A stretch of DNA of 61,708 nucleotides, counting the filler. It is 3 parts of 3 records of this genome, joined end to end, with 100 filler letters (N's around TTAATTAATTAA, not from the genome) between each part and the next. Parts side by side here need not be neighbours in the genome. Positions count along the whole stretch, not along the records: positions 30,166 to 61,708 come from SRR22947725_4471; 2 more parts are not named here. One strand, written 5' to 3'. The notes under the pieces are model-generated. The model was not told where the DNA came from and did no database searches. It saw only the letters and a list, made by a program, of their open reading frames with translations. Every line of letters starts with the position of its first letter. The stretch's first letter is position 1. A program made the position numbers and the translations under genes. Positions 19,187 through 42,338 of the stretch are shown here, one piece after another.

Positions 19187-19189
19187 AGT

Positions 19190-19922: not shown

Positions 19923-20000
19923 GCATCAAATAGCGATAGCTTTTCTTGGAAGCCTCACGCTATAAATCCAGTTGATAACTGAGATTGCCTAAGGAGAAAC

Positions 20001-22933: not shown

Positions 22934-22968
22934 CGTTATCCTTTTCAGGCGCCGAAGAACGGAGTCTC

Positions 22969-24036: not shown

Positions 24037-24062
24037 ATCTCTGTAACAAGCGTCGCTTGCGG

Positions 24063-25325: not shown

Positions 25326-25333
25326 GCTTACTC

Positions 25334-26071: not shown

Positions 26072-26142
26072 GGTATCTCCTGATCTGTCTTCTCTACCTT
26101 GAGAAGACCCACTCGCAATAAAGATTACAAAAAACTTTTGGG

Positions 26143-26178
26143 GGAGTGCGCCGAAGACGTTTTGCTCCGGCGCACTCC
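26143..26178 (-). terminator. GC-rich hairpin after the binding-protein gene (terminator or mRNA-stabilising stem)
   Basis: GGAGTGCGCCG...CGGCGCACTCC 11-bp inverted repeat just downstream of the SBP stop; U-tract is displaced from the stem. Confidence 0.6.
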
Positions 26179-26195
26179 TTTGTTGCTAAATGTTG

Positions 26196-27284
26196 CTAGT
26201 TGATGCCGTACTGCTCACAAGCAGCAGCGACATCTGCGGTGCAGAGTTCCTCAACAGAGGCGTCGCCGTTGGCAACTACGTCCTTAACCTGCTCAGCGCT
26301 GACCGAGATTGGGTCAAGAGCAAGGAACGGAGTTCCGTCTGCGAGTGTCTTGTTGGTCTCTGGCACCTCACCGCTCAGGATGGTGATCGCCATGGCGGCA
26401 CCGGCCTCAGCCTGAATGGTGAATGGCTTGTAAACAGTTCCGTACTGCTTACCAAGAAGCACATTCTGAAGACCTGCAATCGAAGCGTCCTGACCGGAGA
26501 CTGGAACAGTCAGACCGTTCTTGTCCAAGATCGCGATGATTGAAGCAGCGTTGTTGTCGTTTGGTGCAAGCACCGCGTCAACGCTTCCGGATACTGCAGT
26601 GAAGGCCTGCTCAAACAGCGTGCCAGCCTTGGTTCCATCCCAGGTACCTTCCATGGTGAAGACAGGAGATGCACCGGCAGCCTCAAGGACAGACAGCGCA
26701 CCGTTTAGGAACATTGCTGCGTTGCCATCAGCTGGGTCTCCCGAAGAGTAGATGATGCTGGCAGTGGTTACGTCTTTACCTGCAGCCTCTAGACCATCGA
26801 TGATCATCTGACCCTGCATAGCTCCTACAACCTCGTTGTCGAATGACAGGTAGTAGTCAGCGCCAGCAATTGGTCGGTCGTAAGCAATGACAGGCACACC
26901 TTGAGCCTTAGCCTTCTCTGCCACGGACACACCTGCACCCTGGTAGTCGACTAGAAGCATTACACCGCAGCCCTTAGTGAGCTGCTGGTCACCAATGGTG
27001 GCGTACTTGGCGGTGTCAGACTGTGCGTTCTGAATGTCTGCCTCGTATCCAGCAGCAGTAAGTGCCTTCTCCAAAGCTGGACGGTCGCCTGGCTCCCAGC
27101 GAGTTCCGCTGTCGGCGTCAGGGAGGATTACGCAAGCGCGACCTGCAGTCGCCTCGACAGTTTCTTCAGTTGACGAACCAGCGGCTGTCTCTGAAGGAGT
27201 TGTAGTTTCTGCTGCACAACCGGTTAAGGCTAGTGCTGCAGCCGCTGCAAGTGCCGAAAATGAAAATAATGAAGACTTCTTCAT
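26196..27284 (-). CDS. Sugar-binding lipoprotein (XylF/ChvE-like)
   Basis: MKKSS...lipobox LTGC; RWEPGDRP, VPVIAYDRPI, SFDNEVVG, APND, VSGQDA, TVYKP; AAGGA RBS supports the ATG at 27284. Confidence 0.9.
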   Translation of the reverse strand: MKKSSLFSFSALAAAAALALTGCAAETTTPSETAAGSSTEETVEATAGRACVILPDADSGTRWEPGDRPALEKALTAAGYEADIQNAQSDTAKYATIGDQQLTKGCGVMLLVDYQGAGVSVAEKAKAQGVPVIAYDRPIAGADYYLSFDNEVVGAMQGQMIIDGLEAAGKDVTTASIIYSSGDPADGNAAMFLNGALSVLEAAGASPVFTMEGTWDGTKAGTLFEQAFTAVSGSVDAVLAPNDNNAASIIAILDKNGLTVPVSGQDASIAGLQNVLLGKQYGTVYKPFTIQAEAGAAMAITILSGEVPETNKTLADGTPFLALDPISVSAEQVKDVVANGDASVEELCTADVAAACEQYGIN

Positions 27285-27361
27285 AATTTGATCGGTCCTT
27301 TCATTTGATGTGCTACCCGAGAGGGTCCCCCCGAATAGTTCTTGAGTGAAACTCAAGACTA

Positions 27362-27453
27362 TGTTGTAGCAAACAACAAAATATTGCAACCACAGAGAAA
27401 GGAAAAACGCTAACAAAGGCATAACGTTACCTATTTGTTGTTTAGGACAACAA
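27362..27453. promoter_or_regulatory. Two TGTTGT-N5-ACAACA palindromes, candidate ROK repressor operators
   Basis: TGTTGTagcaaACAACA (27362-27378) and TTGTTGTttaggACAACAA (27435-27453) in the divergent SBP/ROK intergenic region. Confidence 0.65.
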
Positions 27454-27491
27454 GTATCGTTGAGTTAGGACGGTGAAAGGAGTTTGAGCCT

Positions 27492-28694
27492 GTGACGACT
27501 AACTCTGGAGCGGTAAGCAATCGCGGGCAGAGCTCTGACAGTGTTCGCCAGCACAACTTGACTACTGTGCTGAGGCTGGTGCACCTAAACCGCAAAATCC
27601 TTCGTTCCCAACTCACTGCGATTACAGGGTTGAATCGCTCGACGGTTTCGGCTCTAATTTCCGAACTTGAGGAGCTTGGACTTGTTGTAGAGAGCGAGTC
27701 GCAGGGTTCCTCTGGCGTTGGACGTCCATCACTGATGGTTGCTCCGAATGAGAATGTTGTGGCGTTTTCAGTCAATCCAGAAATTGATGCGACAACTGTT
27801 TCCGTCGTTACGCTTTCCGGCCAGGTCATAGACAGGCGTCGAAAGCTCATGGGGTCACACCCCTCTTCGGAGGACGCGATCCGCGTTTCGGCCGAAGTTA
27901 TATCTGAAATGCGAAAGGCTTTTCGCCCCGGAACCCAAATTGCCGGGGTCGGCGTTTCAGTTCCAGGTCAGGTGAGAACCTCTGACGGTGTGATTCGGTA
28001 TGCCCCTCAGCTCGGTTGGGTCGAGTCGGCGTTTGCTACAGCGCTGAGTCAGGAAACAGGACTGAATGTGTTCCTTGGGAACGATGCAAGCCTTGGCTGC
28101 CTTGCTGAGGCGAGGTTTGGAACCGCAAAAAATGTCAACGACCTCGTTTTCCTGTTCGCTGGATCGGGCGGTATCGGCGGTGGCGTTGTAAGCAATGGAA
28201 TGACGGTCGGTGGCGCCGCCGGTTACGCCGGGGAGCTTGGCCACATGAAGGTTTCTAGCTCTGGCCGACTCGATTACTCAGGCCTTCCCGGCACCCTGGA
28301 GTCTCTGGTAAGGCGTGAAGATCTGCTGGACTTCTTCAAGCTCTACGTTGCAACCGATGAAGAACTGGCTGCGGAAATTAGGTCCAGTGAATCTTCGCGC
28401 GCAAAGCGCCTAATCCACGATCAACTTGACAGCCTTGCTGAGGGCCTGAGCAACCTCGTCAACATATTCAACCCCGAGGTTATTGTGCTCGCTGGTTTCC
28501 TCACATCACTTTTTGAATTTGATCCGGATTACCTACTGTCACAGGTTAAGAAAGGTTCACTAGCAGCTGCAGCTGAGCGAGTAGTTATTCGAAATGGCGC
28601 ATTGGGCGCCGACCTTCTTGTGCTTGGAGCGGCAGAGCTTCCTTTTGACGCACTAATCTCATCGCCTTCCAGTTACAGCTTGAAATCTGCGTAG
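27492..28694 (+). CDS. ROK family transcriptional repressor (XylR/NagC-like)
   Basis: N-terminal wHTH (RSQLTAITGLNRSTVSALISEL, GRP), GVGVSVPG, NDA, GIGGG, AGELGHM. Confidence 0.93.
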   Translation: MTTNSGAVSNRGQSSDSVRQHNLTTVLRLVHLNRKILRSQLTAITGLNRSTVSALISELEELGLVVESESQGSSGVGRPSLMVAPNENVVAFSVNPEIDATTVSVVTLSGQVIDRRRKLMGSHPSSEDAIRVSAEVISEMRKAFRPGTQIAGVGVSVPGQVRTSDGVIRYAPQLGWVESAFATALSQETGLNVFLGNDASLGCLAEARFGTAKNVNDLVFLFAGSGGIGGGVVSNGMTVGGAAGYAGELGHMKVSSSGRLDYSGLPGTLESLVRREDLLDFFKLYVATDEELAAEIRSSESSRAKRLIHDQLDSLAEGLSNLVNIFNPEVIVLAGFLTSLFEFDPDYLLSQVKKGSLAAAAERVVIRNGALGADLLVLGAAELPFDALISSPSSYSLKSA

Positions 28695-28827
28695 GCGCGA
28701 AGAGCCGGATAAGTAGTAAAGGATTTCTCTCAGAGCGAGAGACCTCACGTTTGGCGGAGAATGCTTGATTCGAACTACCGCCCTCTTGCCCTCCTAAATA
28801 CTGGGGTTGGGGTTTAGGAAATTGCTT

Positions 28828-28853
28828 TCTACGCCATCTATCTACGCCATCTA
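28828..28853 (+). repeat. 13-bp tandem duplication (TCTACGCCATCTA)x2
   Basis: Directly visible in the ROK-kinase intergenic region. Confidence 0.8.
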
Positions 28854-28958
28854 TGCAGCATCTAGCCATTAACTCGTCACGGTTGCTATCAAAGTAAAAT
28901 TGACCCAGATCGAAATTCATTGAAATTTTTAACTAAGTGTCGAGAAAGGGGTTGTGTC

Positions 28959-29939
28959 TTGGCTTTCTCAGACCTAACCACTGAACAACAAATTCAAAGC
29001 TTGCTTGCGCCAGCCAACTCTGTACTGCTTGATTACGGAATCATTCCTGTTGGGCTCGAAAGTATCAACCACGAATACAACTCAACGTTTTCGGTAACTG
29101 CGGCTGATGGGAGCAGGTTTGCCCTTCGAATAAACGTAAATTCAACTCGAACAAAAGAGAACGTTGCCGCTGAGATGTCGTTTGTAAACACCTTGGCTGA
29201 GCTCGGAACATTCGGGCTTGCCACTCCACTGCGAAATCTTTCTGGAGACTTTGTTAGCGAGGTCGCACACGAGGAGACTGGTAGGGACCTGTTGTGCGTA
29301 CTCTTTACCTGGCTCGAGGGTGAAGACGTCGGTGATGAGCCCACCTTGGAAGTGGTCTTCAAGATGGGAGCACTTATGGCTCAGCTTCACGAGGCAACTA
29401 AGGAACTGGTTTTACCTGTCGGTGAAGAGCTCCCAATCTTGGATGACTTTATGTGGCACGAGGAGGACTTGCTCTTAGGACCCAAATCGACTTTGACGCC
29501 TGAAGAGCAGCACAAAATTCAATCCTTTAAAAATGCGATTGAACAAGAGCTTGCTCTACTATTCAAGGCAACCCCGAAACAGCCAATTCATGCGGATCTT
29601 CACGGGTGGAATCTAATGTTTCACAACGATTCGCTTTCTGTGTTCGACTTCGATGATTCTGGTATCGGCTTGCCGATTCAAGATTTAGCCACGACCATTT
29701 ACTACTTAGACACCGAGGAGCAGGAGCAGGCGCTGAGAGATGGCTATTCATCAGTTCGAGAATTGCCGATTTGTAGTGAATACCAAATGAAAGCATTGCT
29801 GCTTCAACGAAGGATTCACTTGCTCAACTATATTCACGAGACTCAGAATCCCGAGCATCGTGAAATGCTGCCCGAGTATCAGCTCGAGACTTTACGTCGA
29901 ATTGAAGATTTTCTCGCTACAAAGACGGGGCAGAGGTAG
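28959..29939 (+). CDS. APH/homoserine kinase type II-family phosphotransferase
   Basis: FALRIN, MAQLH, IHADLHGWN (Brenner motif), VFDFDD, QDLA; GAAAGGGG RBS before the TTG at 28959. Confidence 0.85.
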   Translation: MAFSDLTTEQQIQSLLAPANSVLLDYGIIPVGLESINHEYNSTFSVTAADGSRFALRINVNSTRTKENVAAEMSFVNTLAELGTFGLATPLRNLSGDFVSEVAHEETGRDLLCVLFTWLEGEDVGDEPTLEVVFKMGALMAQLHEATKELVLPVGEELPILDDFMWHEEDLLLGPKSTLTPEEQHKIQSFKNAIEQELALLFKATPKQPIHADLHGWNLMFHNDSLSVFDFDDSGIGLPIQDLATTIYYLDTEEQEQALRDGYSSVRELPICSEYQMKALLLQRRIHLLNYIHETQNPEHREMLPEYQLETLRRIEDFLATKTGQR

Positions 29940-30004
29940 GGGAACTTACTTGAGTGTTTTGATTTTCTAATGGCTGTCAAAGCACATAAAACTGCACAAG
30001 TAGC

Positions 30005-30054
30005 AAAAACTCCCTCGATAAACGCCCCTACTGAGGCTCTAAATCAAGGGAGTT
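30005..30054 (-). terminator. Rho-independent terminator on the minus strand, downstream of the probable tRNA
   Basis: Minus strand AACTCCCTTGAT...GCCTC AGTA GGGGC...ATCGAGGGAGTT followed by a T run. Confidence 0.6.
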
Positions 30055-30056
30055 GC

Positions 30057-30065
30057 TGGCGGAGA
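30057..30065 (-). tRNA. Possible 3' end of a tRNA (Ser-like ...TCTCCGCCA), truncated by contig end
   Basis: Only 9 nt visible: acceptor-stem 3' strand, discriminator G and CCA, followed by a terminator hairpin. Confidence 0.35.
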
Positions 30066-30165
30066 NNNNNNNNNNNNNNNNNNNNNNNNNNNNNNNNNNN
30101 NNNNNNNNNTTAATTAATTAANNNNNNNNNNNNNNNNNNNNNNNNNNNNNNNNNNNNNNNNNNNN
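30066..30165. other. Artificial contig spacer (44 N + TTAATTAATTAA + 44 N)
   Basis: Same linker as at 16935-17034. Confidence 0.98.
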
Positions 30166-30166
30166 A

Positions 30167-30841
30167 GGTTGTGGAAAAACAACATTATTAAATATCGTTG
30201 CTGGTTTTCTTGCGCCGACGGAAGGAAAAGTCGTTCTTAATGGGCAAACTGTTCAAGGTCCAGGAGCCGAGCGTGGAATGGTTTTTCAACAGGGCGCTTT
30301 GTTTGAGTGGATGGATGTTCGTGCTAATGTTGCTTTTGGTCCTCGTATGAAAGGAACTCCAAAAGCAGAACAAGATGAAAAGGTTAAGCGCCTTCTAGAA
30401 ATTGTTGGATTAGCTGATTTTGAAGATAAAGCTGTTTATGAGCTATCGGGCGGTATGCAACAAAGAGTCGCTTTGGCGAGATGTCTCGCAAATGATCCAG
30501 ATGTCATTTTAATGGATGAACCCTTAGGCGCTCTTGACGCACTAACAAGAGAAAAAATGCAGGGTTTGGTTTTAAAACTTTGGAAGGAAACAGGAAAAAC
30601 AATTTTATTAATTACTCACTCAGTTGAAGAGGCTGTCCTTTTGGGCGAAAGACTTTTGGTTCTTGCGCCAAGACCAGGAAGAATACATAAAGAATACAAG
30701 TTGCCGTTTGCTGAAATGGGAGTCAATATGGACTTGAGAGAGGTTAAAAAATCTGAAGGCTATTCTGAAACTCGAGATGAAATCCTCTCTATTATTTGGG
30801 AGATGGAAGAAGAAATTATGGGCAGGGCGGACGAAAACTAA
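30167..30841 (+). CDS. tauB: Taurine ABC transporter ATP-binding subunit, 5'-truncated
   Basis: Frame starts in Walker A (GCGKTTLLN), PGAERGMVFQ, LSGGMQQRVALAR, LMDEPLGALDALTRE, ITHSVEEA; taurine cluster context. Confidence 0.88.
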   Translation, partial: GCGKTTLLNIVAGFLAPTEGKVVLNGQTVQGPGAERGMVFQQGALFEWMDVRANVAFGPRMKGTPKAEQDEKVKRLLEIVGLADFEDKAVYELSGGMQQRVALARCLANDPDVILMDEPLGALDALTREKMQGLVLKLWKETGKTILLITHSVEEAVLLGERLLVLAPRPGRIHKEYKLPFAEMGVNMDLREVKKSEGYSETRDEILSIIWEMEEEIMGRADEN

Positions 30842-32109
30842 TGACTATTTTAATTATTTATATCTTAATTTTCATAGCTGCTTTTTACTTAGTAAAGATA
30901 GTCAGTTCAATGAGAGCTGTAAAAGATGATTTTACAAGTTTAAAGACTGTTACATTTGGTGACGAAAGTGCAGTATCACCCAATAGAGCTGCATCTATTA
31001 TTTCAGTTATTGCAATTTTTGCAATTTGGGCTGCGTTTACTGGCTCTAAATATATTCCAGTTCATGTTCCTGGGCCATTTATTGGTGAACTTTCGTTTGA
31101 GTACACTGCAATGAATGCATTAGGACAAACTGATGATGCTGAAGTTACAGTTACAGTTTATGATGTTCAGTCTGGAGATATTCCAGATAAGCTAGAAATT
31201 GATCCTGGCTCAGGTTTTGCTCTAAACGATACTGCCCAGATTATTACTTACAGAAGTGGTTTAGTAAAAGTCCAAAAAAATGATGTTGGCGGCAAAGAAA
31301 AAGGTTACAAAGTGATTGCTATTAATGGCCAAGAGATATCACCAAGTACTGAGCTTTTTATTGACAATGCCCGAATCTATATGACTGCAAAGGGCACCTT
31401 GAGTGTAAAACCTGAACAAGGATGGCAGATGCAGCCTGTTTGGCTTCCTGCTCCAGAAGCTGTCGGCTCAAGATTATTAAAAGTTTATAATGAAGGTTTT
31501 AAAAACTTCACACTTTTTGAGCATCTAGGTTGGTCCTTGCTTAGGGTTGTTGTTGGCTTTGTGGCTGGAGCTATTGTTGGAATTCCTTTAGGTTACGCAA
31601 TGGGACTTTCTGGATGGTTTCGTGGTTGGTTTGATCCGATAGTTGAATTTATGAGACCAGTGCCTCCATTAGCTTTAATTCCATTGGTCATCATCTGGTT
31701 TGGAATTGGTGAACAAGGAAAGATTATTTTGCTATTCCTTGCTTCACTTTGGATCATGACAATTTCTGCTAGGGCAGGCGTATCTGGTGTAAAAATTTCT
31801 AAAATACATGCCGCATACTCCTTAGGCGCTTCTAAGTGGCAGATTATGAGATTAGTTATTGTTCCAAATAGTTTACCAGAGATATTTACTGGTGCCCGAG
31901 TGTCTATGGGTGTCTGCTGGGGAACTGTTGTTGCGGCAGAGCTTGTTGCCGCTCAAAAGGGTGCTGGCATGATGATTATTAATGCCTCTAAGTTTCAGAT
32001 GACTGATCTAGTTATTATGGGAATTGTACTCATTGGCGTAATTGGATATGCAATTGACATATTAATGCGTATTTCAGAAAATTATCTTGTCCCATGGAAA
32101 GGTAAATAG
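30841..32109 (+). CDS. tauC: Taurine ABC transporter permease with extracytoplasmic Ig-like insertion
   Basis: WLPAP, HLGWSLLRV, DPIVEFMRPVPPLALIPLVIIWFGIGE, AAYSLGAS, LPEIFTGAR, VAAELVAA; ATG overlaps the tauB stop. Confidence 0.88.
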   Translation: MTILIIYILIFIAAFYLVKIVSSMRAVKDDFTSLKTVTFGDESAVSPNRAASIISVIAIFAIWAAFTGSKYIPVHVPGPFIGELSFEYTAMNALGQTDDAEVTVTVYDVQSGDIPDKLEIDPGSGFALNDTAQIITYRSGLVKVQKNDVGGKEKGYKVIAINGQEISPSTELFIDNARIYMTAKGTLSVKPEQGWQMQPVWLPAPEAVGSRLLKVYNEGFKNFTLFEHLGWSLLRVVVGFVAGAIVGIPLGYAMGLSGWFRGWFDPIVEFMRPVPPLALIPLVIIWFGIGEQGKIILLFLASLWIMTISARAGVSGVKISKIHAAYSLGASKWQIMRLVIVPNSLPEIFTGARVSMGVCWGTVVAAELVAAQKGAGMMIINASKFQMTDLVIMGIVLIGVIGYAIDILMRISENYLVPWKGK

Positions 32110-32147
32110 CTTTTTATAATTTCTTACTTTTTTTACTGGAATAAATA

Positions 32148-34616
32148 ATGTCGCAAATATTACCCAAACAAGCACAAGCTGTCATTATCGGAGGAGGAGT
32201 TGTTGGATGTTCAGTGGCCTATCATCTCGCTAAACTTGGCTATACAGATGTTGTGCTTCTAGAACGTAAAAAATTGACTTCGGGTACCACATGGCATGCG
32301 GCAGGACTTGTTGGCCAAATGCGCTCTTCTCTCAATTTGACACAAATGGTTAAGTATTCAGGCAATCTTTATGAAACTTTAGAGGCTGAAACTGGTATGG
32401 CAACTGGCTACAGACGGACTGGCTCTGTGAGCCTCGCTACTAATCAAGAAAGGCTTACTGAATATAAGCGAAATGCCTCGCTTGCAAAAGTGCATGGTGT
32501 AGATGTTCAAATTTTAACGACTGATGAGTTAAGAGATAAAGTCAATTTCTTTAATCTTGATGATGTAGTTGGTGGTGCGTGGATTCCAAAAGATGGAAAA
32601 GCTGATCCAGCAAATGTTGCAATGGCCTTAGCCAAAGGTGCAAAAAATAAAGGTGTTAAAATTTTTGAGGATGTAAAGGTTACTGGAATTCTTAAAGAGA
32701 ATGGAAAAGCAACTGGAGTTCAAACTGAGTTTGGGGAAATTAAATCTGAAGTAGTTGTTAATTGCGGCGGAATGTGGGCCAGAGAAGTTGGAAAAATGGC
32801 TGGTGTTTCAGTGCCGCTTCATGCATGTGAGCACTTTTATTTTCTAACTTCAGCAGTTCCAGGGTTAGGAGATATGCCTGTAGTAAGAGTCCCTGATGAG
32901 TCTGCATACTACAAAGAAGATGCTGGAAAAATATTAGTTGGACTCTTTGAGCCAAATGCAAAACCTTGGGCTCAAAATGGCATACCTGAGGACTTTTGTT
33001 TTGATCAAATTCAAGATGACCTAGATCACTGTATGCCTTATCTAGAGTTAGCAATGAACAGAGTTCCAGTTATGGATAGCTTAGGTATTGAAACACTCTT
33101 TAATGGGCCAGAAAGCTTTACTCCAGATGACAATTTTCAAATCGGTGAGTCCCCAGAACTGAAAAGCTTTTATATCGCCGCTGGATTCAATTCAATTGGA
33201 ATTCAGGCTGCTGGAGGAGCTGGAAAATATTTGGCAGAATGGATTGTGGGCAAAGAGCCACCCTGTGATCTATGGGATGTAGATATCAGAAGAAATCAGT
33301 CATTCCAAAGCAATAAGACTTATCTAGCTAACAGAGTAACTGAAACCCTTGGCTATCTCTATGAAAATCATTTTCCTTATCATCAATATGAAACTGCAAG
33401 GGGGCTAAGGAAAACACCTCTTTATGATTTCTACAAAAAACGTGGAGCCTGTTTTGGTGAAGTTGCTGGCTGGGAGAGACCTAACTGGTTCGTTCCAGAA
33501 GAGTTGATTGGCAAAGCTGAGGCAAAGTATGAATACTCATGGGGAAGGCAAAATTGGTTTGATTATCATAAACTTGAACAACAAGCCATTAGAGAGTCTG
33601 TTGGTATGTACGAAATGTCCTCGTACGCAAAAATCAGAGTTAAAGGCAATGATGCTATGGACTTTCTACAGCTGATTTGTGCAAATGACATAGATGTTGA
33701 GCCTGGAAAGATGGTTTACACTCAGTGGCTTAACGGTAAAGGCGGTATCGAGGCTGATGTTACTGTGACTCGACTTGCTTTAGATGATTACTTGATTGTG
33801 AGCGGAACGGTTTGCCTCAATAGGGATATGCATTGGCTTCAGAAGAATATGCCTATTGGTGCTAATTGTTCATTGTTTGATGCAACAAGTTCTGAGGGGT
33901 GTATAGCCATTATGGGGCCAAATTCGAGAGATTTACTTCAGTCTCTTACAGATACTGATTTGAGCAATAAAAGCTTTCCATTTGCAAATGTTCGAAATAT
34001 TGAAATAGGTATGGCAAATGTTAGAGCTCATAGAATCACTTATGTTGGCGAGTTGGGTTGGGAGCTTTATTTTCCAATTGAATTTTCAAGTTATGTTGCT
34101 GAATTATTAGATGAAAGAGGCAAAGAGTTTTCACTAAGACATATCGGAATGCATACCGTTGATAGCTGTAGAATTGAAAAAGCATACAGACACTTTGGGC
34201 ATGATATTACCGATGAAGATCACGTAATTAATGCAGGCCTTGGATTTGCAGTAAAGCTTGATAAAAAGCCTTCAAAATACGGAAACTTTATTGGTTATGA
34301 ATCTGTTCAATCAAAAAAAACTGCTGGTTATGATATGCGTGTCATGCAATTTTTATTAGATAATTCAGATTTAATGCTTTACCACAACGAGCCTATCCTT
34401 AAAAATGGAGAAATTGTTGGTCATTTGACAAGCGGTACATATAGCCATACTCTTGGAAGTGCTGTGGGTCTCGGTTACATACCATGTAAACCAAATGAAA
34501 GCCAAGAGGATATCTTGAGCGCTGATTACTCAGTCGAGGTAGAAGGTGTTATTGAGAAGTGTAAGGTTTCTCTAAAGCCAATGTATGATCCACTAAATGA
34601 GAAAATTAGAATCTAA
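32148..34616 (+). CDS. Sarcosine/dimethylglycine dehydrogenase-like FAD oxidoreductase with GcvT (THF-binding) C-terminus
   Basis: IIGGGVVG, SGTTWHAAG (covalent-flavin His), EHFY, NGPESFTPD, GWERPNWF, GGIEADVTV, RITYVGELGWEL, RIEKAYR. Confidence 0.92.
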   Translation: MSQILPKQAQAVIIGGGVVGCSVAYHLAKLGYTDVVLLERKKLTSGTTWHAAGLVGQMRSSLNLTQMVKYSGNLYETLEAETGMATGYRRTGSVSLATNQERLTEYKRNASLAKVHGVDVQILTTDELRDKVNFFNLDDVVGGAWIPKDGKADPANVAMALAKGAKNKGVKIFEDVKVTGILKENGKATGVQTEFGEIKSEVVVNCGGMWAREVGKMAGVSVPLHACEHFYFLTSAVPGLGDMPVVRVPDESAYYKEDAGKILVGLFEPNAKPWAQNGIPEDFCFDQIQDDLDHCMPYLELAMNRVPVMDSLGIETLFNGPESFTPDDNFQIGESPELKSFYIAAGFNSIGIQAAGGAGKYLAEWIVGKEPPCDLWDVDIRRNQSFQSNKTYLANRVTETLGYLYENHFPYHQYETARGLRKTPLYDFYKKRGACFGEVAGWERPNWFVPEELIGKAEAKYEYSWGRQNWFDYHKLEQQAIRESVGMYEMSSYAKIRVKGNDAMDFLQLICANDIDVEPGKMVYTQWLNGKGGIEADVTVTRLALDDYLIVSGTVCLNRDMHWLQKNMPIGANCSLFDATSSEGCIAIMGPNSRDLLQSLTDTDLSNKSFPFANVRNIEIGMANVRAHRITYVGELGWELYFPIEFSSYVAELLDERGKEFSLRHIGMHTVDSCRIEKAYRHFGHDITDEDHVINAGLGFAVKLDKKPSKYGNFIGYESVQSKKTAGYDMRVMQFLLDNSDLMLYHNEPILKNGEIVGHLTSGTYSHTLGSAVGLGYIPCKPNESQEDILSADYSVEVEGVIEKCKVSLKPMYDPLNEKIRI

Positions 34617-34619: not shown

Positions 34620-35375
34620 TTAGTTTTGTATAAATACGCCTATTAATGTTGCTACTCCAACGATTCCAAGTGCTATCAAAGAGAAGTTTCTATAGTATTT
34701 ATTACCAGAAACATTAAAAAACCTTGTGCCTAAATATGTAGAAAAGACATAGAGTGGGGCGGTTATTGCGCCTGTCAAGAGAATATTTTTTGTAAATAGA
34801 CCAAAAAAGTAAAGGCTAATAATAGCGCTCATTACTAGACCAGAGGTAATAACTAAAATATTTGCGCGTGCAACTTCATCACTGTCCTTCTTAGATAATA
34901 GAACAGTTACATATGGCGGACCTCCCATACCTGTTGCTCCCTGCATTAATCCACTAATAGCTCCTCCTAGGGTGAGAACATGATTAGTTATCGTAGATTT
35001 AATTCTCCAACCACTACCAATAAGAATAACAAAAAATATTAATAAGATAGACATCAAAGTTTTTATGATTTGTTCATCTATTGAAACTAAAAATATTGTT
35101 CCTAAAGGAATGGTCAACATCATTGTTAACATCATAGGGGTTATCTCTTTCAAATTAGATTTCTTAACGCCAATAAAAGTCAAGTATATAGTTGCCGGGA
35201 TTTCAATGACAATATTGAAAACCATCGCAAAGATTGGAGAGTAGAAATAGGATAAGATTGGGATCATTAGTAAGCCTGATCCAAAACCAATGAACCCTCT
35301 TAAAAAACCAGAAAGAACAACAACTATAACAATTAAAAAATAATTATCAGGAACAAAGTTAAAGAAATCTACCAT
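34620..35375 (-). CDS. tauE: Sulfite exporter TauE/SafE family
   Basis: GFLRGFIGFGSGLL and SGLMQGATGMGGPP repeats, ~8 TM; downstream of tauR. Confidence 0.85.
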   Translation of the reverse strand: MVDFFNFVPDNYFLIVIVVVLSGFLRGFIGFGSGLLMIPILSYFYSPIFAMVFNIVIEIPATIYLTFIGVKKSNLKEITPMMLTMMLTIPLGTIFLVSIDEQIIKTLMSILLIFFVILIGSGWRIKSTITNHVLTLGGAISGLMQGATGMGGPPYVTVLLSKKDSDEVARANILVITSGLVMSAIISLYFFGLFTKNILLTGAITAPLYVFSTYLGTRFFNVSGNKYYRNFSLIALGIVGVATLIGVFIQN

Positions 35376-35380: not shown

Positions 35381-36865
35381 TTAGTGAGATTTAGGAATCA
35401 AAGATTTAATTTCTTTGATGATAATATCCATACCCTTGTTTATCTTGTTTGTATCTATAGCGGAATACCCAAGATGTAAAAAATTTGAAGGAGGGTTTTT
35501 CTCATTAAATAGTGTATTGCCAGATCTTACTGAAACACCTTTTTTTAACAGTCTCTTGCAAAGCATGTCGCTATCAACTGATTCAGGAATTTCAACCCAA
35601 AAAGTTGAGCCTCCAAGAGTTGGTGCACAGGACAATAGCGGCTCTTGATGAATTTTTTCATTAATTAGCCCCCATCGTTCTTTATTTGTTTTTTGTATTT
35701 TGGTAAACATGTTATGGTAATGACCTAAGCCAATAAATAGAGCAACAGATCTTTGATTGTTTGCAGGTATGTGTCTTATCATCAAGCGCCTTAAAGCTTT
35801 AGCCTCTTTTATGAAGCTCTCTGGTGCTACCATATATCCAAGCCTTAGGCCTGGCGCAAATGCTTTAGAGAAGCTGCCAACATAGATGACGTTATTATCT
35901 TTATCAAGACTTTTTAATGAAGGATGAGGTTTTTTTTGAAAGTTAATTTCAGCTTCATAATCATCCTCAATAATAACCATTTGATTTTCTTTGGCAACTG
36001 ATAGAAGTTCATTTCGTCTATCCATGCTCATAGTGACACCGGTTGGATATTGATGACTTGGAGTGGTAAAAATAATATCAGTTTTAGGGTCAATATCTTT
36101 GATGACAATTCCATCCTTATCAATACTAATTGGGACAATATTGTCAGTTTTTGAGCTAAATATATTTCTGACATCTGGATATCCTGGGTTTTCCATACCC
36201 ACAACAGTACCTTGCTTGGTAAGTAAGCTGGCGATTATATATATCGCATTCTGACTTCCTGATGTAATTAGAATTTGATCTTTATTTGCCCAAATACCTC
36301 TCTTTGGAAGTACCTTAGATTGAATCTGTTTAATTAAAGAAGGGTCATCATTGTCTACATGATCTATATTCCATTTTTGAATTTCAGGAAGTGTCGATGA
36401 ATGCCTGACTACCTCTCTCCATTCATAGTAAGGAATTAGACTTTTATCAATTTGACCAATAGTAAATGAATAGGGCAGACTTTGCCAGTTTTCTGGATTA
36501 TGAATATTTGTTTGGGTCGATGGTTTTTTTGTGATTAACTTATCATGCCATATAGGTGATTCAACATTACTTGACTGTTCGCTATCATTTGAATTGTAGC
36601 TTTCATAAAACTGTTCATTTACATAATACCCTCTCCTTTCTTGAGGGGTAATATAGCCATCAAACTCTAACTCTTTATAGGCTGCAATGACTGTATTTCT
36701 TGCAACTTTAAGAGCACTTGCAAGATTTCTGGATGATGGGAGGGGTTCATTTGGACCAATTAAACCATTTGTAATTGCATCAATCAACTGCTGGCGAATT
36801 TGAAGTTGAAGGGTCCGAGGCTTGTCATGCCTAAGAGAAAAAAACTGGTTCCACATTTCATCCAT
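35381..36865 (-). CDS. tauR: MocR/GabR-type GntR regulator of taurine catabolism
   Basis: LPSSRNLASALKVARNTV wHTH, ITSGSQNA, TPSHQYPTG, IIEDDYE, GSFSKAFAPGLRLGY; divergent from tpa. Confidence 0.88.
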   Translation of the reverse strand: MDEMWNQFFSLRHDKPRTLQLQIRQQLIDAITNGLIGPNEPLPSSRNLASALKVARNTVIAAYKELEFDGYITPQERRGYYVNEQFYESYNSNDSEQSSNVESPIWHDKLITKKPSTQTNIHNPENWQSLPYSFTIGQIDKSLIPYYEWREVVRHSSTLPEIQKWNIDHVDNDDPSLIKQIQSKVLPKRGIWANKDQILITSGSQNAIYIIASLLTKQGTVVGMENPGYPDVRNIFSSKTDNIVPISIDKDGIVIKDIDPKTDIIFTTPSHQYPTGVTMSMDRRNELLSVAKENQMVIIEDDYEAEINFQKKPHPSLKSLDKDNNVIYVGSFSKAFAPGLRLGYMVAPESFIKEAKALRRLMIRHIPANNQRSVALFIGLGHYHNMFTKIQKTNKERWGLINEKIHQEPLLSCAPTLGGSTFWVEIPESVDSDMLCKRLLKKGVSVRSGNTLFNEKNPPSNFLHLGYSAIDTNKINKGMDIIIKEIKSLIPKSH

Positions 36866-36869: not shown

Positions 36870-36924
36870 CTGGCCTATTAATTGTAAGTTTCCTGGTTCT
36901 ATATATATGTTAAATCAGGACCAG
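36870..36924. promoter_or_regulatory. Candidate TauR binding sites (two direct CTGG boxes plus one inverted)
   Basis: CTGGCCTAT at 36870, CTGGTTCTAT at 36893 (23-bp period), inverted AGGACCAG at 36917-36924. Confidence 0.5.
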
Positions 36925-36980: not shown

Positions 36981-38342
36981 ATGTCAAATACTACAGTTGT
37001 AGATAATGCTAAAGATCACGTCTGGCACCATTTAACTCAACATAAAGCTTTTGAAGAGAACGATCCTTTAGTGATGACTAAAGCAAAAGGGATGATCATA
37101 ACAGATTCTAAGGGTGATGAATATCTAGATGCCACCTCTGGAGGTGTTTGGACCGTTAACCTTGGCTATGGAAGAGATGACATGGTTAAGACAGTCTCTG
37201 ACCAACTTTCAAAAATACCATACTTTGCTGGTGCTTTTGGAAATGAGCCAGCGTCTCATTATGCTCAAGAAATAACATCTCTGATGCCTGGAATGAATCG
37301 CGTTTATTATTCAAACTCAGGCTCTGAGGCGAATGAAAAGGGATACAAAATGGTCCGTCAGTTAGCGCATTTTGATAACGATGGAAAAAAACATAAAATT
37401 ATTTTTCGTGATCGTGACTATCATGGCACTACTATTGGGGCTATGAGTTCATCGGCCCAAATTCAAAGAAAGAAACAGTATGGACCTTTTGCGCCAGGTT
37501 TTGTAGAAATGCCTAATTGTTGTTGCTATCGTTGTCCGTTTGGTAAAAAGTATGGGGAATGTAATATTGAATGTGCAACAGTTCTTGAAGATATTATTTT
37601 GAAAGAAGACCCTGATACTGTTGGTTCAGTTGTGCTTGAGCCAATTACTGCTGGTGGCGGTGTAATACCTCCAGTTCCAGAGTATTTCCCAATCATTCAG
37701 TCGATTTGTAAAAAATATGACGTTTTGCTTCACATTGATGAGGTGGTTTGCGGACTTGGAAGAACGGGAAAATGGTTTGGTTATCAGCACTTTGATGTAC
37801 AGCCTGACATTGTCACAACTGCAAAAGGTTTGGCGGCGGGTTATGCTGCAATATCTGTAACTATTACATCTGAGGAAATTTTTCAAAGATTTAAGCAAGA
37901 TCATACTAATCCAGATAGTTACTTTAGAGATATTTCTACTTTCGGTGGCTGTACTGCTGGTCCAGCAGCAGCGCTTGAGGTGGTTAATATTATCAAAAAA
38001 GAAAATCTGCTTGAAAACGTAACAAACATGGGTAACTATCTTAAGGATAAGTTGAGCGCTCTTCAAGATAAGTATGAAATTATTGGAGATGTTAGAGGAA
38101 AAGGACTGTTTTGTGGTGTTGAGCTAGTCAAAGATAGACAAACTAAAGAGCCAGTTCATGAAAGCGTTGCTATGGCTATTGCGGGGCATTGTTTAAAAAA
38201 TAAAGTAATGATTGGAAGAACCAATCGTAGTTTTGAGTTTAACAACAACGTGCTGCTTTTTAGTCCATCTTTTATATGCTCTAAAAATGAAATTGATCAA
38301 ATTGTTGCAGCTGTTGATAATGCTATTGCTGCAAATACATAA
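36981..38342 (+). CDS. tpa: Taurine--pyruvate aminotransferase
   Basis: Class III aminotransferase: VWHHLTQHK, YLDATSGGVWTVN, NSGSEANEK, RDYHGTT, EPITAGGG, DEVVCG, TTAKG, RDISTFGGC; followed by ald and xsc. Confidence 0.9.
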   Translation: MSNTTVVDNAKDHVWHHLTQHKAFEENDPLVMTKAKGMIITDSKGDEYLDATSGGVWTVNLGYGRDDMVKTVSDQLSKIPYFAGAFGNEPASHYAQEITSLMPGMNRVYYSNSGSEANEKGYKMVRQLAHFDNDGKKHKIIFRDRDYHGTTIGAMSSSAQIQRKKQYGPFAPGFVEMPNCCCYRCPFGKKYGECNIECATVLEDIILKEDPDTVGSVVLEPITAGGGVIPPVPEYFPIIQSICKKYDVLLHIDEVVCGLGRTGKWFGYQHFDVQPDIVTTAKGLAAGYAAISVTITSEEIFQRFKQDHTNPDSYFRDISTFGGCTAGPAAALEVVNIIKKENLLENVTNMGNYLKDKLSALQDKYEIIGDVRGKGLFCGVELVKDRQTKEPVHESVAMAIAGHCLKNKVMIGRTNRSFEFNNNVLLFSPSFICSKNEIDQIVAAVDNAIAANT

Positions 38343-38373: not shown

Positions 38374-39492
38374 ATGATTATTGGTGTTCCAAAAGAGATT
38401 AAAAACCATGAGTACAGAGTAGGATTAACGCCTAGAAGTGTTAAGGAGTTTATTAATCATGGCCATAAAGTTTTAGTTCAAACCAATGCAGGTGTTGGAA
38501 TTGGTGCAAGTGACGATGAATATCTAGATACTGGGGCTGAAATCATATCTACTGCCAAGGAAGTTTTTGATAAAGCGGAAATGATTGTAAAGGTAAAAGA
38601 GCCTCAAGCAGAAGAAATTGCAATGCTTAGAGAAGGTCAAATTCTATACACTTATCTTCATCTCGCTCCAGATCCAGAGCAAACTAAAGGTTTAGTAGAA
38701 AGTGGTGCAATTTGTATAGCCTATGAAACAGTAACATCTCCAAGAGGTGGCCTTCCATTATTAGCGCCAATGTCAAAGGTTGCTGGAAGAATGGCAGTCC
38801 AAGCTGGCGCTCACTTTTTAGAGCATCCAAATGGTGGCATGGGTGCACTACTTGGCGGTGTTCCAGGGGTTGATCCACTCAATGTTGTGATACTAGGTGG
38901 TGGCGTTGTTGGTGCTCATGCTGCTCATATGGCAGTTGGAATGGGAGCAGATGTCTGGGTTCTTGATAACAATCCTGAAACCTTAGAGTCTCACTGGCAG
39001 CAATTTGGTAGAAGTACCAATACGGTATTCTCAACAAAAAGTTCGGTAGAGGAGTATGTGCTTCAGGCAGACCTGGTTATTGGTGGTGTTTTAATCCCAG
39101 GTGCTGAGGCACCAAAATTAGTTTCTAAAGAGATGATTAAGGCAATGAAGCCTGGATCTGTGATTGTTGATGTTGCAATTGACCAAGGCGGTTGCTTTGA
39201 AACCTCAAAAGCAACAACACATGCTGAGCCAACTTATATTATTGATGATGTGGTTCATTATTGTGTTGCAAATATGCCTGGAGGCGTTCCAAAGACATCT
39301 ACTTATGCCCTGAACAATGTAACATTGCCTTTTGGGCTTACTATTGCAAATAAAGGCGTTAAACAAGCTTTATTGGATGATGAACATTTGAGAGCAGGAT
39401 TGAATGTCCACAGTGGAAAAGTAACCTGTCTTGAGGTGGCTCAAGATTTGGGATATGATTATGTTCCAGCTCTTGATATGCTCAATAAATAA
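38374..39492 (+). CDS. ald: Alanine dehydrogenase
   Basis: MIIGVPKEIKNHEYRV, KVKEP, YTYLHLAP, LPLLAPMS, DVAIDQGGCFETS, HYCVANMPG. Confidence 0.97.
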   Translation: MIIGVPKEIKNHEYRVGLTPRSVKEFINHGHKVLVQTNAGVGIGASDDEYLDTGAEIISTAKEVFDKAEMIVKVKEPQAEEIAMLREGQILYTYLHLAPDPEQTKGLVESGAICIAYETVTSPRGGLPLLAPMSKVAGRMAVQAGAHFLEHPNGGMGALLGGVPGVDPLNVVILGGGVVGAHAAHMAVGMGADVWVLDNNPETLESHWQQFGRSTNTVFSTKSSVEEYVLQADLVIGGVLIPGAEAPKLVSKEMIKAMKPGSVIVDVAIDQGGCFETSKATTHAEPTYIIDDVVHYCVANMPGGVPKTSTYALNNVTLPFGLTIANKGVKQALLDDEHLRAGLNVHSGKVTCLEVAQDLGYDYVPALDMLNK

Positions 39493-39516: not shown

Positions 39517-41289
39517 ATGGCAAAGATGACCTCAAGTGAGGCTTTCGTTGAAACAATGGTCGCTAATGATGTAACTGATATATTCGGTATCATGGGTTCA
39601 GCGTTTATGGATGCAATGGATATTTTTGAACCAGCAGGAATCAGATTTATTCCGGTAGTTCATGAACAAGGCGCTGCTCATATGGCAGATGGGTACTCAA
39701 GAGTTAGTGGTAGACATGGTGTAGTAATTGGTCAGAACGGTCCTGGTATCTCCAACTGCGTAACAGCTATTGCTGCTGCTTACTGGGCTCATAGTCCTGT
39801 TGTTATTGTGACTCCTGAAGCCGGAACTATGGGTATGGGTCTTGGAGGTTTTCAAGAAGCAAATCAGCTTCCTATGTTCCAAGAGTTTACTAAGTACCAA
39901 GGTCACGTTGTTAATCCGATGAGGATGGCTGAATTTACGGGTCGTTGCTTTGATAGGGCTATGAGCGAAATGGCTCCTACACAGTTAAACATTCCAAGAG
40001 ATTACTTTTATGCAGATGGTGAGTTTACAATTCCTACTCCAAGAAGAATTGATAGAGGATCTGGAGGCGAGGATACTTTAAATGAGGCTGTTGCTTTAAT
40101 TGCAAAGGCTAAGTTTCCAGTTATTGTTTCAGGTGGCGGTGTTGTTATGGCGGATGGTGTTCAGGAATGTGCTGCATTAGCGGAACGTCTTGGCGCACCG
40201 GTCGTTAATAGTTATCTTCACAATGATTCTTTCCCTGCGAGTCACGATTTATGGTGTGGTCCACTAGGCTATCAAGGCTCAAAAGCAGCTATGAAGTTAA
40301 TCTCAAAAGCAGACGTGGTTATTGCTTTAGGGACTCGCTTAGGTCCTTTTGGAACGCTGCCTCAGCACGGGATGGATTATTGGCCTAAAGATGCTCAAAT
40401 TATTCAAATTGATGCTGATCACAAAATGTTAGGTTTGGTAAAACCAATCAATGTAGGTATCTGTGGTGATGCAAAAGCTGTAGCTGAAGTTCTATGTCAA
40501 AAACTAAAATCAGAAACGTTGAGCTGTGATTCAACTAAGTCTGAAAGATCCACAACAATTGCTGATGAAAAATCAGCTTGGGAGCTCGAGCTTGATGAGT
40601 GGATTCATGAAACTGACTCTTATAGTATGGATATGATTGCTAACAAAGAAGAAGGATGGCTTCACCCAAGACAAGTCCTACGCGAACTTGAAAAAGCTAT
40701 GCCTGAGGATGTCATGGTCTCTACTGATATTGGAAATATCAATTCTGTAGCCAATAGTTATCTTAGATTTGAAAAGCCACGTAGTTTTTTTGCAGCGATG
40801 AGTTTTGGAAACTGTGGTTATGCCTTTCCAACAATTATTGGAGCCAAAGCAGCGGCTCAACACAGGCCCGCTGTTTCCTACGCAGGTGATGGTGCTTGGG
40901 CAATGAGCATGGTTGAAACTATGACTTGTGTGCGTCATGATATTCCAGTGACTGCAGTTGTTTTTCATAATCGTCATTGGGGCGCTGAAAAGAAAAATCA
41001 AGTAGATTTTTATGACAGACGTTTTATTGCTGCTGAGCTTACTGATCAGCACTTTGTTAATATTGCAGAATCAATGGGTGCTGAAGGAATACGAGTTGAT
41101 AAACTTGAAGATGTAGGTCCAGCTCTTAAAAAAGCGATAGATATGCAAATGAATGAAAGAAAGACAACAATCATTGAAATTATGTGCTCAAGAGAGCTTG
41201 GAGATCCGTTCAGAAAAGACGCATTAAGCAAGCCAGTTAGATTCCTTGACAAGTATAAAGATTTTGGTGAAAAATCTCCTCATCGATAA
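39517..41289 (+). CDS. xsc: Sulfoacetaldehyde acetyltransferase (ThDP)
   Basis: FGIMGSAFMD, QNGPGISN, GFQEANQLPMF, GPLGYQGSKAAM, GDGAW, WGAEKKNQVDFY, ELGDPFR. Confidence 0.96.
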   Translation: MAKMTSSEAFVETMVANDVTDIFGIMGSAFMDAMDIFEPAGIRFIPVVHEQGAAHMADGYSRVSGRHGVVIGQNGPGISNCVTAIAAAYWAHSPVVIVTPEAGTMGMGLGGFQEANQLPMFQEFTKYQGHVVNPMRMAEFTGRCFDRAMSEMAPTQLNIPRDYFYADGEFTIPTPRRIDRGSGGEDTLNEAVALIAKAKFPVIVSGGGVVMADGVQECAALAERLGAPVVNSYLHNDSFPASHDLWCGPLGYQGSKAAMKLISKADVVIALGTRLGPFGTLPQHGMDYWPKDAQIIQIDADHKMLGLVKPINVGICGDAKAVAEVLCQKLKSETLSCDSTKSERSTTIADEKSAWELELDEWIHETDSYSMDMIANKEEGWLHPRQVLRELEKAMPEDVMVSTDIGNINSVANSYLRFEKPRSFFAAMSFGNCGYAFPTIIGAKAAAQHRPAVSYAGDGAWAMSMVETMTCVRHDIPVTAVVFHNRHWGAEKKNQVDFYDRRFIAAELTDQHFVNIAESMGAEGIRVDKLEDVGPALKKAIDMQMNERKTTIIEIMCSRELGDPFRKDALSKPVRFLDKYKDFGEKSPHR

Positions 41290-41303: not shown

Positions 41304-41350
41304 TCCCTCAGAGTGGTATATTATTGCGCTCTGAGGGAATAAATTTTTTT
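41304..41350 (+). terminator. Rho-independent terminator after xsc
   Basis: TCCCTCAGAG...CTCTGAGGGA stem followed by ATAAATTTTTTT. Confidence 0.7.
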
Positions 41351-41353
41351 ACA

Positions 41354-41905
41354 ATGAATGAAAATTCGATAACACCATCTGATGTTTTAGATTATTGGTT
41401 TTCAGAAAAAAGTAAACAATTCTGGTTTGCTTCAACCCCCCAAGTAGACAACGAAATTAAAGTACGTTTTGAAAGCGTTTGGGAAAAAGCAGCGGAAGGA
41501 GAATATAGTCAGTGGAGAGAAACAGCTGATGGCTCTGTTGCTCTTATAGTAATTTTGGATCAGCTACCCCTTAATATGTTCAGATCAGACCCAAAAGGCT
41601 TTCAAACAGAGAGTATGGCAGTTGAAGTAGCTTTAAATGCAATTAATAATGGGTTTGATGAGGAGCTCAATGATGAAAAGCTATTATTTCTGTTTATGCC
41701 ATTGATGCATAGTGAAAATATTGATCATCAAAATTTACAAGTTTATTTGTTTGATAAGTACAACTTTAACCTTGAGTTTTCAAAGCATCACAGAGATCTC
41801 GTTAAAAAATTTGGTCGCTTCCCTCATAGAAATGAAATTCTAGGGCGCATGAGTACCATGGAGGAGCTTGACTATCTTCTCTCTGATAACGCATTTAAGG
41901 GTTAG
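41354..41905 (+). CDS. DUF924 family protein
   Basis: VLDYWF, WF, LIVILDQLPLNMFR, FLFMPLMHSE, FGRFPHRNEILGR; the upstream TTG lies in the terminator so the ATG at 41354 is preferred. Confidence 0.9.
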   Translation: MNENSITPSDVLDYWFSEKSKQFWFASTPQVDNEIKVRFESVWEKAAEGEYSQWRETADGSVALIVILDQLPLNMFRSDPKGFQTESMAVEVALNAINNGFDEELNDEKLLFLFMPLMHSENIDHQNLQVYLFDKYNFNLEFSKHHRDLVKKFGRFPHRNEILGRMSTMEELDYLLSDNAFKG

Positions 41906-41915
41906 AACTTATTAT

Positions 41916-42338
41916 TTATTTAACAGAAAGTATTGCGTCAATCCCCGCTTGAGAAACCACTATATCTTGGTCAGAGCTGCCAGAACTGCAACCAATCCCA
42001 CCAACAATCTGACCATCAACAAAAAGAGGTAGGCCACCACCAACTACACAAAAACGACCTTGATGTGAGGTTTGAATACCAAATGCTGGCCCATGATTAA
42101 TAACAGATTTACCATAATCTAAGGTCGCCTTTCTAGCTGCCGCAGCAGTAAATGCCTTATCGATAGAGACATTAATGCTTGTAATTTTTGCATTATCCAT
42201 TCTTGTAAATAACATGAGGTGACCACCATCGTCCACAATAGCGATATCCATGTCTATACCAAGTTCAATTGCTTTATTAATGGCACCATCCATCATTTTC
42301 TTTGTATCTTCAAGCGTAAGTTTTAGTACTTGTTTCAT
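41916..42338 (-). CDS. glcG: GlcG/HbpS heme-binding family protein
   Basis: IAIVDDGGHL...RMD, IDKAFTAA, GGGLPL..DGQIVGGIGCS, DQD; downstream of glcB. Confidence 0.8.
   Translation of the reverse strand: MKQVLKLTLEDTKKMMDGAINKAIELGIDMDIAIVDDGGHLMLFTRMDNAKITSINVSIDKAFTAAAARKATLDYGKSVINHGPAFGIQTSHQGRFCVVGGGLPLFVDGQIVGGIGCSSGSSDQDIVVSQAGIDAILSVK

Follow-up and report, generated by a model that had tools for sequence, protein, structure and literature searches.

The window analysed here is a stretch of DNA of 61,708 nucleotides (nt) made up of three contigs, with spacers of the form N...TTAATTAATTAA...N between them (16979-16990 and 30110-30121), and its last contig carries a cluster of taurine transport and degradation genes that includes a gene, hereafter X, for a candidate N-methyltaurine dehydrogenase. 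The source organism is a relative of Candidatus Pseudothioglobus; the named public records that match X at 82-95% identity are Candidatus Pseudothioglobus and Thioglobus assemblies. The second spacer spans 30067-30166; tauB is thus truncated by the end of a contig rather than disrupted, and tauA, with its promoter, falls outside the contig. In G001, the complete genome closest to that of the window (1.71 Mb), which served as a stand-in for genome-wide questions and encodes an orthologue 95% identical to X, nusB is followed directly by a gene for a tauA-like substrate-binding protein, full-length tauB, tauC and X. X belongs to the family of dimethylglycine dehydrogenase (DMGDH) and sarcosine dehydrogenase (SARDH), enzymes with a flavin adenine dinucleotide (FAD) domain and a GcvT domain for tetrahydrofolate (THF), and its orthologous group is designated group A. 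The features of the cluster are:

30167..30841, + strand: tauB, ATP-binding cassette (ABC) transporter ATPase, 5' end cut by the contig end (NF008421, 251.6 bits, profile positions 37-253 of 255)
30796..32109, + strand: tauC, permease, listed at 437 amino acids with an uncertain start codon (NF007545, 232 bits, cut-off 342, residues 212-436; PF00528)
32110..32147, + strand: tauC-X spacer, 38 nt (tauC stop codon TAG at 32107-32109, X start codon ATG at 32148)
32148..34616, + strand: X, DMGDH/SARDH-family FAD and GcvT (THF) amine dehydrogenase of group A, candidate N-methyltaurine dehydrogenase (Pfam domains, matches to solved relatives, tree)
34620..35375, - strand: tauE-type sulfite exporter (PF01925, 6e-23)
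35381..36865, - strand: MocR-type regulator with GntR and aminotransferase-like domains, called tauR below (PF00392 and PF00155; best NCBIfam model PdxR-type, 378 bits, cut-off 320)
36871..36903, + strand: TauR-like double direct repeat TGGCCTATTAA-N11-CTGGTTCTATA between tauR and tpa (repeat shared with the tauA upstream region; one of 3 sites in G001)
36981..38342, + strand: tpa-like class-III aminotransferase (PF00202, 311.5 bits; no NCBIfam model above its own cut-off)
38374..39492, + strand: ald, alanine dehydrogenase (TIGR00518, 515.7 bits, cut-off 391.85)
39517..41289, + strand: xsc, sulfoacetaldehyde acetyltransferase (TIGR03457, 1018.3 bits, cut-off 676.4)
41324..41905, + strand: DUF924 gene after xsc (PF06041; co-located in many related loci)

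Xsc and Ald score above their equivalog cut-offs, the tpa product is assigned only as a class-III aminotransferase, and for tauA, tauB and tauC the taurine models are the best matches, with scores below the cut-offs. These domain and equivalog matches bear out the placing of X, in an earlier note on this DNA, among tauB(C), tauE, a MocR-type regulator, tpa, ald and xsc; its start 38 nt after tauC on the same strand is likewise confirmed, and a search of the 38-nt spacer for a terminator-like site found none. The tauC product has an N-terminal extension of approximately 200 residues ahead of the permease domain, which is conserved in related Thioglobaceae loci.

By domain content and alignment, X is a full-length member of the family of DMGDH, SARDH and dimethylglycine oxidase (DMGO), with the complete four-part architecture. 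Its open reading frame (ORF) encodes the FAD/GcvT enzyme of 822 amino acids described in the earlier note, with the Pfam domains DAO (PF01266, residues 11-365, 6.3e-70), FAO_M (PF16350, residues 370-422), GCV_T (PF01571, residues 425-701, 9.3e-73, 245 bits) and GCV_T_C (PF08669, residues 731-814), and with the nucleotide-binding motif IIGGGVVG, of the GxGxxG type, at residues 12-19. The best solved relatives are rat and human DMGDH (4pab, 7e-140 over X residues 8-786; 5l46), and the Arthrobacter DMGO 1pj5 matches X at 3.9e-108; the architecture is the same throughout in the mammalian enzymes (rat 4PAB/4P9S/4PAA, human 5L46), in the DMGO of Arthrobacter globiformis (1PJ5) and in X. The motifs that had been singled out (TTWHAAG, EHFY and IEADVT) are all present and align with DMGDH: TTWHAAG with STWHAAG of the rat enzyme, His229 of EHFY with the His of rat QHQY, Tyr254/255 with rat YY, and GGIEADVTV with rat GRVYAELTV, where rat DMGDH has Glu at the position of the Asp claimed for the THF domain. 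Alignment with mammalian DMGDH thus extends to the flavinylation-type His motif, to the catalytic His and Tyr residues and to the THF domain of X. In DMGDH, FAD is covalently attached at the His of (S/T)TWHAAG. The catalytic His/Tyr dyad is described in the available text of PMC5082570.

The complete GcvT/THF domain kept in X points to release of a one-carbon unit. X differs from mammalian DMGDH in that it is distant from it in sequence (471 bits), lies among taurine genes rather than choline or betaine genes, and has a sulfonate rather than a carboxylate as its predicted substrate. Dehydrogenases of the TauXY type have a large subunit consisting of DAO only and a small cytochrome subunit, with no folate domain. 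X is not of this type, as both GCV_T and GCV_T_C are present, and tauY-like genes sit in clusters that lack X (those of genomes G799 and G801, below).

Conservation and regulation of the cluster in Thioglobaceae

Among 35 related loci that were retrieved, 33 belong to the Thioglobaceae lineage, and every one of these has at least one tau gene beside X; in 21 of the 33, X lies between tauC and either tauR or tpa. In locus L024, tauABC, X, tpa, ald and xsc are arrayed on one strand, without tauR or tauE. Three Thioglobaceae loci have other genes in place of the upstream tauABC: an Opp-type ABC system (L037), DUF1800/DUF1501 genes (L023) and, in the deep-branching L036, a choline/ethanolamine-kinase-like gene and a 43%-identical paralogue directly upstream of X (497-3819, - strand). 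The upstream genes of these three loci give no hint of the substrate. The arrangement upstream of X in L036 occurs also at G823:C7:36513-38948. Within 10 kb of X, none of the 33 Thioglobaceae loci contains paralogue B (a relative closer than X to mammalian DMGDH, below), MttB, BHMT, a Rieske betaine demethylase or a cupin-helix-turn-helix regulator.

X is present in 33 of 121 sampled genomes of the family (31 of 42 in the genus, 2 of 2 in a second genus and 0 of 77 in 17 other genera), Xsc scores above its cut-off in 36, and X and xsc occur together in 31. Both genomes with X only, and three of the five with xsc only, are incomplete assemblies; in the incomplete G853 and G876, contigs break inside the tau cluster. 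The complete genomes G799 and G801, which belong to other genera and have xsc only, possess tauABC, a tauY-like gene, xsc and pta, without X; thus, X is an accessory component of a single type of tau cluster. A special TauA subtype that travels with X was considered and rejected: orthologues of the window-type TauA (60-66%) are found in the alphaproteobacterial genomes G498, G309 and G279 far from their group-A genes, and the TauA of G799 and G801 (41% identity) is simply a more distant type.

The tauR-tpa spacer and a region approximately 230 nt before tauA have a double direct repeat in common (TGGnCTAyTAA-N11-CTGGTTCTATA). When the G001 genome was scanned with the pattern TGGnYYAYTA-N12-YTGGnTCYATA, allowing at most 1 mismatch, 3 sites were found genome-wide versus 0 for the reversed pattern used as a control: one approximately 230 nt ahead of tauA, one between tauR and tpa, and one preceding an ORF of 264 amino acids, aprB and aprA, next to sat. 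The last of these sites is located at G001:C1:261360-261392 (L122 5361-5393, minus strand). Because the aprBA operon would oxidise the sulfite released by Xsc, the three operator sites form a coherent set, which suggests that taurine-derived sulfite is oxidised via adenosine phosphosulfate (APS) under the same regulator. Across loci, the site upstream of tauA is found with at most 3 mismatches in 14 of 22, versus 0 of 440 shuffles, and the tauR-tpa site fits the strict pattern in 21 of 33.

The double repeat resembles the TauR consensus CTGGACYTAA given in the available text of PMC5320631. As far as that text describes it, the published TauR regulon (tauABC, tpa or tauXY, xsc, pta/ackA, tauE/tauZ) resembles the X locus in having a MocR regulator transcribed divergently from tpa and CTGGACYTAA-like direct repeats spaced by two helical turns; it differs in that here aprBA also carries the operator. 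The operon that includes X would be controlled by TauR, and X is probably co-transcribed with tauABC. The locus is represented in many marine RNA-library assemblies: for a 9.9-kb stretch of it, at least half of the sampled words are present in each of ten runs recorded as RNA, and contigs of two RNA runs from two studies bridge the tauC-X junction (3078 nt, 30200-32932; 1088 nt, 31564-32650); such RNA-library contigs do not prove that the region is transcribed or that it forms one transcript, genes cannot be ranked by the depth of these contigs, and no conclusion can be drawn from stretches that they leave uncovered. A promoter scan gave 21 matches, versus 22.6 expected from shuffles, and hence no excess.

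Relatives of X within and beyond the lineage

The G001 genome encodes four further full-length paralogues of X (31-41% identity), located respectively after genes for a GMC oxidoreductase and a strong member of the MttB family, after another MttB gene, beside soxBDAG together with GMC oxidoreductase and Rieske oxygenase genes, and beside an M20 peptidase gene; two soxBDAG-type sets are present. Judging from these contexts, the oxidation of betaine, dimethylglycine and sarcosine seems to be covered elsewhere in the genome.

Outside the lineage, group A extends to proteins of many Alphaproteobacteria that are 51-60% identical. Forty outside contexts were classified by marker genes within 10 kb (the 20 best matches of an alphaproteobacterial sample, plus a single context from each of 20 genera in a phylum-wide sample): MttB-family genes mark 12 of them, genes for a BHMT-like homocysteine S-methyltransferase 7 and Rieske oxygenase genes 2; in 5, the markers are limited to the cupin, GFA or AraC genes that go with these, 10 have no marker, and 4 are tau-linked. 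The usual group-A operons are cupin-B-A-MttB and cupin-GFA-B-BHMT-A, a layout such as would be expected for stepwise demethylation of glycine betaine, and for Ruegeria pomeroyi the available text of PMC12478193 (2025) mentions 'predicted dimethylglycine and sarcosine demethylation steps'. X falls into the same group as these betaine-type proteins of marine Alphaproteobacteria (100% branch support), but unlike them it has no B, MttB, BHMT, GFA or cupin regulator gene adjacent, and is found instead in a tauABC-X array behind a TauR-like operator. Paralogue B scores 562 bits against mammalian DMGDH and group A 471-475 bits; B being the closer of the two, group A probably comprises the enzymes of the last, monomethyl step.

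Group A is also found inside taurine clusters in four alphaproteobacterial families. G498 has a cupin regulator, B, A, xsc (866 bits) and a class-III aminotransferase gene on one strand with gaps of at most 44 nt, with ackA divergent and a formate-dehydrogenase-like pair adjacent. In G667, B-A abuts pta-xsc, an aminotransferase gene and soeCBA-like genes. G309 and G279, which belong to one genus, have an xsc-pta-aminotransferase-A array with a MocR regulator. In G153, cupin, B and A genes lie between tauCBA and a MocR regulator, with a tauY-like gene adjacent, 17 kb from xsc-pta-soeABC-like genes. In these five genomes, the tau-linked copy is the sole one of group A, and no betaine demethylase was found in the taurine clusters. 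Suvorova and Rodionov (2016) list an oxidoreductase (COG665) and a Tpa-related aminotransferase in some Rhodobacterales TauR regulons, with no function given in the available text (PMC5320631); the xsc-pta-aminotransferase-A array of G309 and G279 may be the COG161/COG665 pair listed there. A strict scan of 13 alphaproteobacterial loci for pairs of CTGGACYTAA found none, and direct repeats (TTGGCCCTAYC) before xsc in the G309 locus (L089) were spotted by eye. In G522 (L112 51-13715), cupin-B-A-MttB abuts tpa-pta-soeABC-like genes, the two sets of genes converging across 10 nt; such a layout makes it conceivable that the substrate of some MttB-family enzymes encoded beside group A is trimethyltaurine and not glycine betaine.

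A tree of 67 rows (IQ-TREE quick search, LG+G4, context labels fixed beforehand) was calculated from the window X, 11 of 27 full-length Thioglobaceae copies, all 42 other group-A copies and, as the outgroup, 13 of 32 copies of B and other paralogues; L030, L031, L038, L041, L042, L045 and L046 were left out as partial or lacking an ORF of 700 amino acids. Group A including X has 100% support in the Shimodaira-Hasegawa-like approximate likelihood ratio test (SH-aLRT), and the Thioglobaceae copies sit on a single long stem (0.44). The other tau-linked copies are found at four separate places among betaine-type copies, the label needs five changes, and the approximately unbiased (AU) test rejects a single clade of the 17 tau-linked rows (difference in log-likelihood 414, p 7e-35). 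The tau-linked subfamily for which the earlier note proposed to look by neighbourhood analysis was thus not recovered, tau-linked and betaine-type copies being intermixed. As the tau-linked copies do not form one clade, pairing with taurine genes has evidently arisen repeatedly, and this speaks for a functional link.

In 28 Thioglobaceae copies, nineteen positions are invariant and carry a residue unlike that of at least 85% of 37 other group-A copies. They include Ser235, six residues past the catalytic His (Glu or Asp in other group-A copies), Ala354 (Ser in other group-A copies, His in rat DMGDH), His412 (Arg) and Phe330 (Tyr). A convergent residue signature of the tau-linked copies was considered and rejected: only position 567 (Asn) is common, and only with L089 and L101.

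Candidate substrate and alternatives

X is probably a dehydrogenase of N-methyltaurine, perhaps also of dimethyltaurine, that forms taurine and methylene-THF, a reading to which we assign a probability of about one half. Its substrate, product and electron acceptor are predicted here from sequence and gene context, and the latter argues for a substrate other than dimethylglycine or sarcosine. X would have been recruited from the dimethylglycine/sarcosine dehydrogenase family into the taurine regulon of Pseudothioglobus. It would oxidise the N-methyl group of N-methyltaurine and transfer the electrons to FAD, probably bound covalently at the His of TTWHAAG, and then to electron-transferring flavoprotein (ETF; G001 has one gene for an ETF alpha subunit, 130 bits), and the one-carbon unit would pass through an internal chamber to THF on the GcvT domain. 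Of the products, taurine and 5,10-methylene-THF, taurine would be converted via Tpa and Ald to sulfoacetaldehyde, from which Xsc would produce acetyl phosphate and sulfite, the latter to be exported by TauE or oxidised by AprBA-Sat.

The proposal of an N-methyltaurine demethylase, made in the earlier note, draws support from the synteny conserved in all 33 Thioglobaceae loci, from the shared operator and from the recurrence in four alphaproteobacterial families, but neither a subfamily nor a residue signature accompanies it. That note left the choice between N-methyltaurine and N,N-dimethyltaurine undecided; N-methyltaurine fits better, because only a paralogue of the second-step type is present at the X locus. 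N-methyltaurine is said, in the title of one cited work, to be a dominant osmolyte of vent and seep tubeworms. N-methylated taurines do occur in marine organisms, as the note states: red algae contain mono-, di- and trimethyltaurine according to the available text of PMC10538540. Its statement that no gene is assigned to N-methyltaurine demethylation also agrees with the accessible portions of the literature on N-methyl-, dimethyl- and trimethyltaurine and taurobetaine, where no such gene was found.

Several observations weigh against N-methyltaurine as the substrate. On the side of physiology, we met no documentation of N-methyltaurine in open-ocean water in the literature, and none of the data presented here supports recognition of N-methyltaurine by a transporter or regulator. 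To our knowledge, the only bacterial route for N-methyltaurine is through a taurine-dehydrogenase-type enzyme that releases methylamine. This (N-methyl)taurine dehydrogenase route, known from Alcaligenes faecalis and Paracoccus versutus, has the same presumed substrate as X and feeds sulfoacetaldehyde to Xsc, but its TauXY-type enzyme, which lacks a folate domain, cleaves the other C-N bond and frees methylamine, where X would give taurine and a folate-bound one-carbon unit. At the locus itself, the substrate-binding protein of G001 scores 131 against a TauA cut-off of 304, the PdxR-type NCBIfam score of the regulator (378 bits, cut-off 320) means that the name TauR rests on context and operator, and the operator upstream of tauA is degenerate or absent (at least 5 mismatches) in 7 of 22 loci, including L024 and L046, both from lineages whose locus lacks tauR.

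The comparison with other genomes contributes further points on the same side. The linkage of homologues to tau genes, on which the earlier note had made its proposal depend, holds throughout the lineage (33 of 33), but outside it 26 of the 40 contexts are of the glycine-betaine type versus 4 that are tau-linked. An xsc gene and an A-like gene occur within 20 kb of each other in 3 of 16 genomes having both in the phylum sample (G001 excluded) and in 4 of 40 in the class sample, counts that are lower bounds because two candidates were scored per genome and many assemblies are fragmented. The tree separates no tau subfamily within group A; the tau-linked copies of Alphaproteobacteria branch among betaine-type copies, in some cases on short branches (L087, 0.13). 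Five alphaproteobacterial tau-linked copies have the betaine-type residue at 18 of the 19 clade-specific positions, so that there is no convergent signature of a sulfonate pocket.

The betaine-type contexts, commonest among the relatives of X (26 of 40), its placement in group A with 100% SH-aLRT support, and the want of either a tau-specific subfamily or a residue signature would suit an ordinary sarcosine (or dimethylglycine) dehydrogenase, drawn into the taurine operon by co-regulation of osmolyte genes or by joint transfer, for example; genes of such operons in Ruegeria pomeroyi are predicted, in the available text of PMC12478193, to serve dimethylglycine and sarcosine demethylation. We consider this unlikely, given that G001 already has two soxBDAG-type sets and MttB-linked paralogues, that the X operon, tpa-ald-xsc and aprBA have a TauR-like operator in common, and that group A is again paired with xsc and tpa in four families of Alphaproteobacteria, in two cases in a single co-directional array lacking a betaine demethylase. 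We also know of no metabolic link from sarcosine to Tpa and Xsc.

It is somewhat more doubtful that group A consists of demethylases of broad specificity for small anionic N-methyl amines, sarcosine and N-methyltaurine included, with the operon setting the substrate and X being unadapted. The intermixing of tau- and betaine-linked copies, the rejection of a single tau clade and the absence of distinguishing residues from the alphaproteobacterial tau-linked copies are all compatible with such enzymes, and human DMGDH also turns over sarcosine, though poorly, according to the available text of PMC5082570. The stem of 0.44 and the 19 fixed differences in Thioglobaceae, however, suggest some specialisation, and the literature yielded no kinetic data on bacterial group-A enzymes. 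Least probable is action of X on some other amine of the taurine regulon, whether another N-methylated aminosulfonate or aminophosphonate or, by deamination, taurine itself: published TauR regulons are indeed variable and include unassigned oxidoreductases (PMC5320631, available text), but the complete GcvT/THF domain points to one-carbon release, and Tpa and Ald already provide a deamination step in the same cluster.

Around the taurine cluster, xsc is followed by the DUF924 gene in most of the related loci that extend beyond xsc, with an HbpS-like gene opposite (41324-42338 in the window). Beyond it, genes for malate synthase G, an RraA-like protein, AceK and isocitrate lyase occupy 42600-48416 (- strand); the glyoxylate shunt would be needed for growth on acetyl units such as Xsc delivers. 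The middle contig (approximately 17.0-30.07 kb) has a GC content of 47-58%, versus 32-46% in the rest of the window, and may derive from another organism in the bin; its genes (17000-30066) encode a glpX-type fructose-bisphosphatase, pntA/pntB-like proteins, a ROK regulator, a sugar ABC system and an APH-family kinase. The first contig includes flagellar hook and rod genes at 11106-16516, among them a very long FlgE-like ORF (1262 amino acids).

In marine algae and invertebrates, taurine and its N-methylated derivatives serve as major osmolytes, and Pseudothioglobus (relatives of Arctic96BD-19/SUP05) is a widespread marine heterotroph. If X is an N-methyltaurine dehydrogenase, its relatives may, tentatively, make up a modular, folate-linked ladder for the demethylation of methylated taurines that feeds into the taurine pathway and in which A alone would act on N-methyltaurine (Pseudothioglobus, G309 and G279), B and A together on N,N-dimethyltaurine (G498, G667 and G153), and MttB, B and A perhaps on trimethyltaurine (G522). 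Such a ladder would provide an abundant pelagic lineage with carbon, nitrogen, one-carbon units and oxidisable sulfite from the methylated taurines of algae and animals. The gene for N-methyltaurine demethylation would then be a marker for surveys, and a missing step of the marine organosulfur cycle would be filled and tied to folate one-carbon metabolism.

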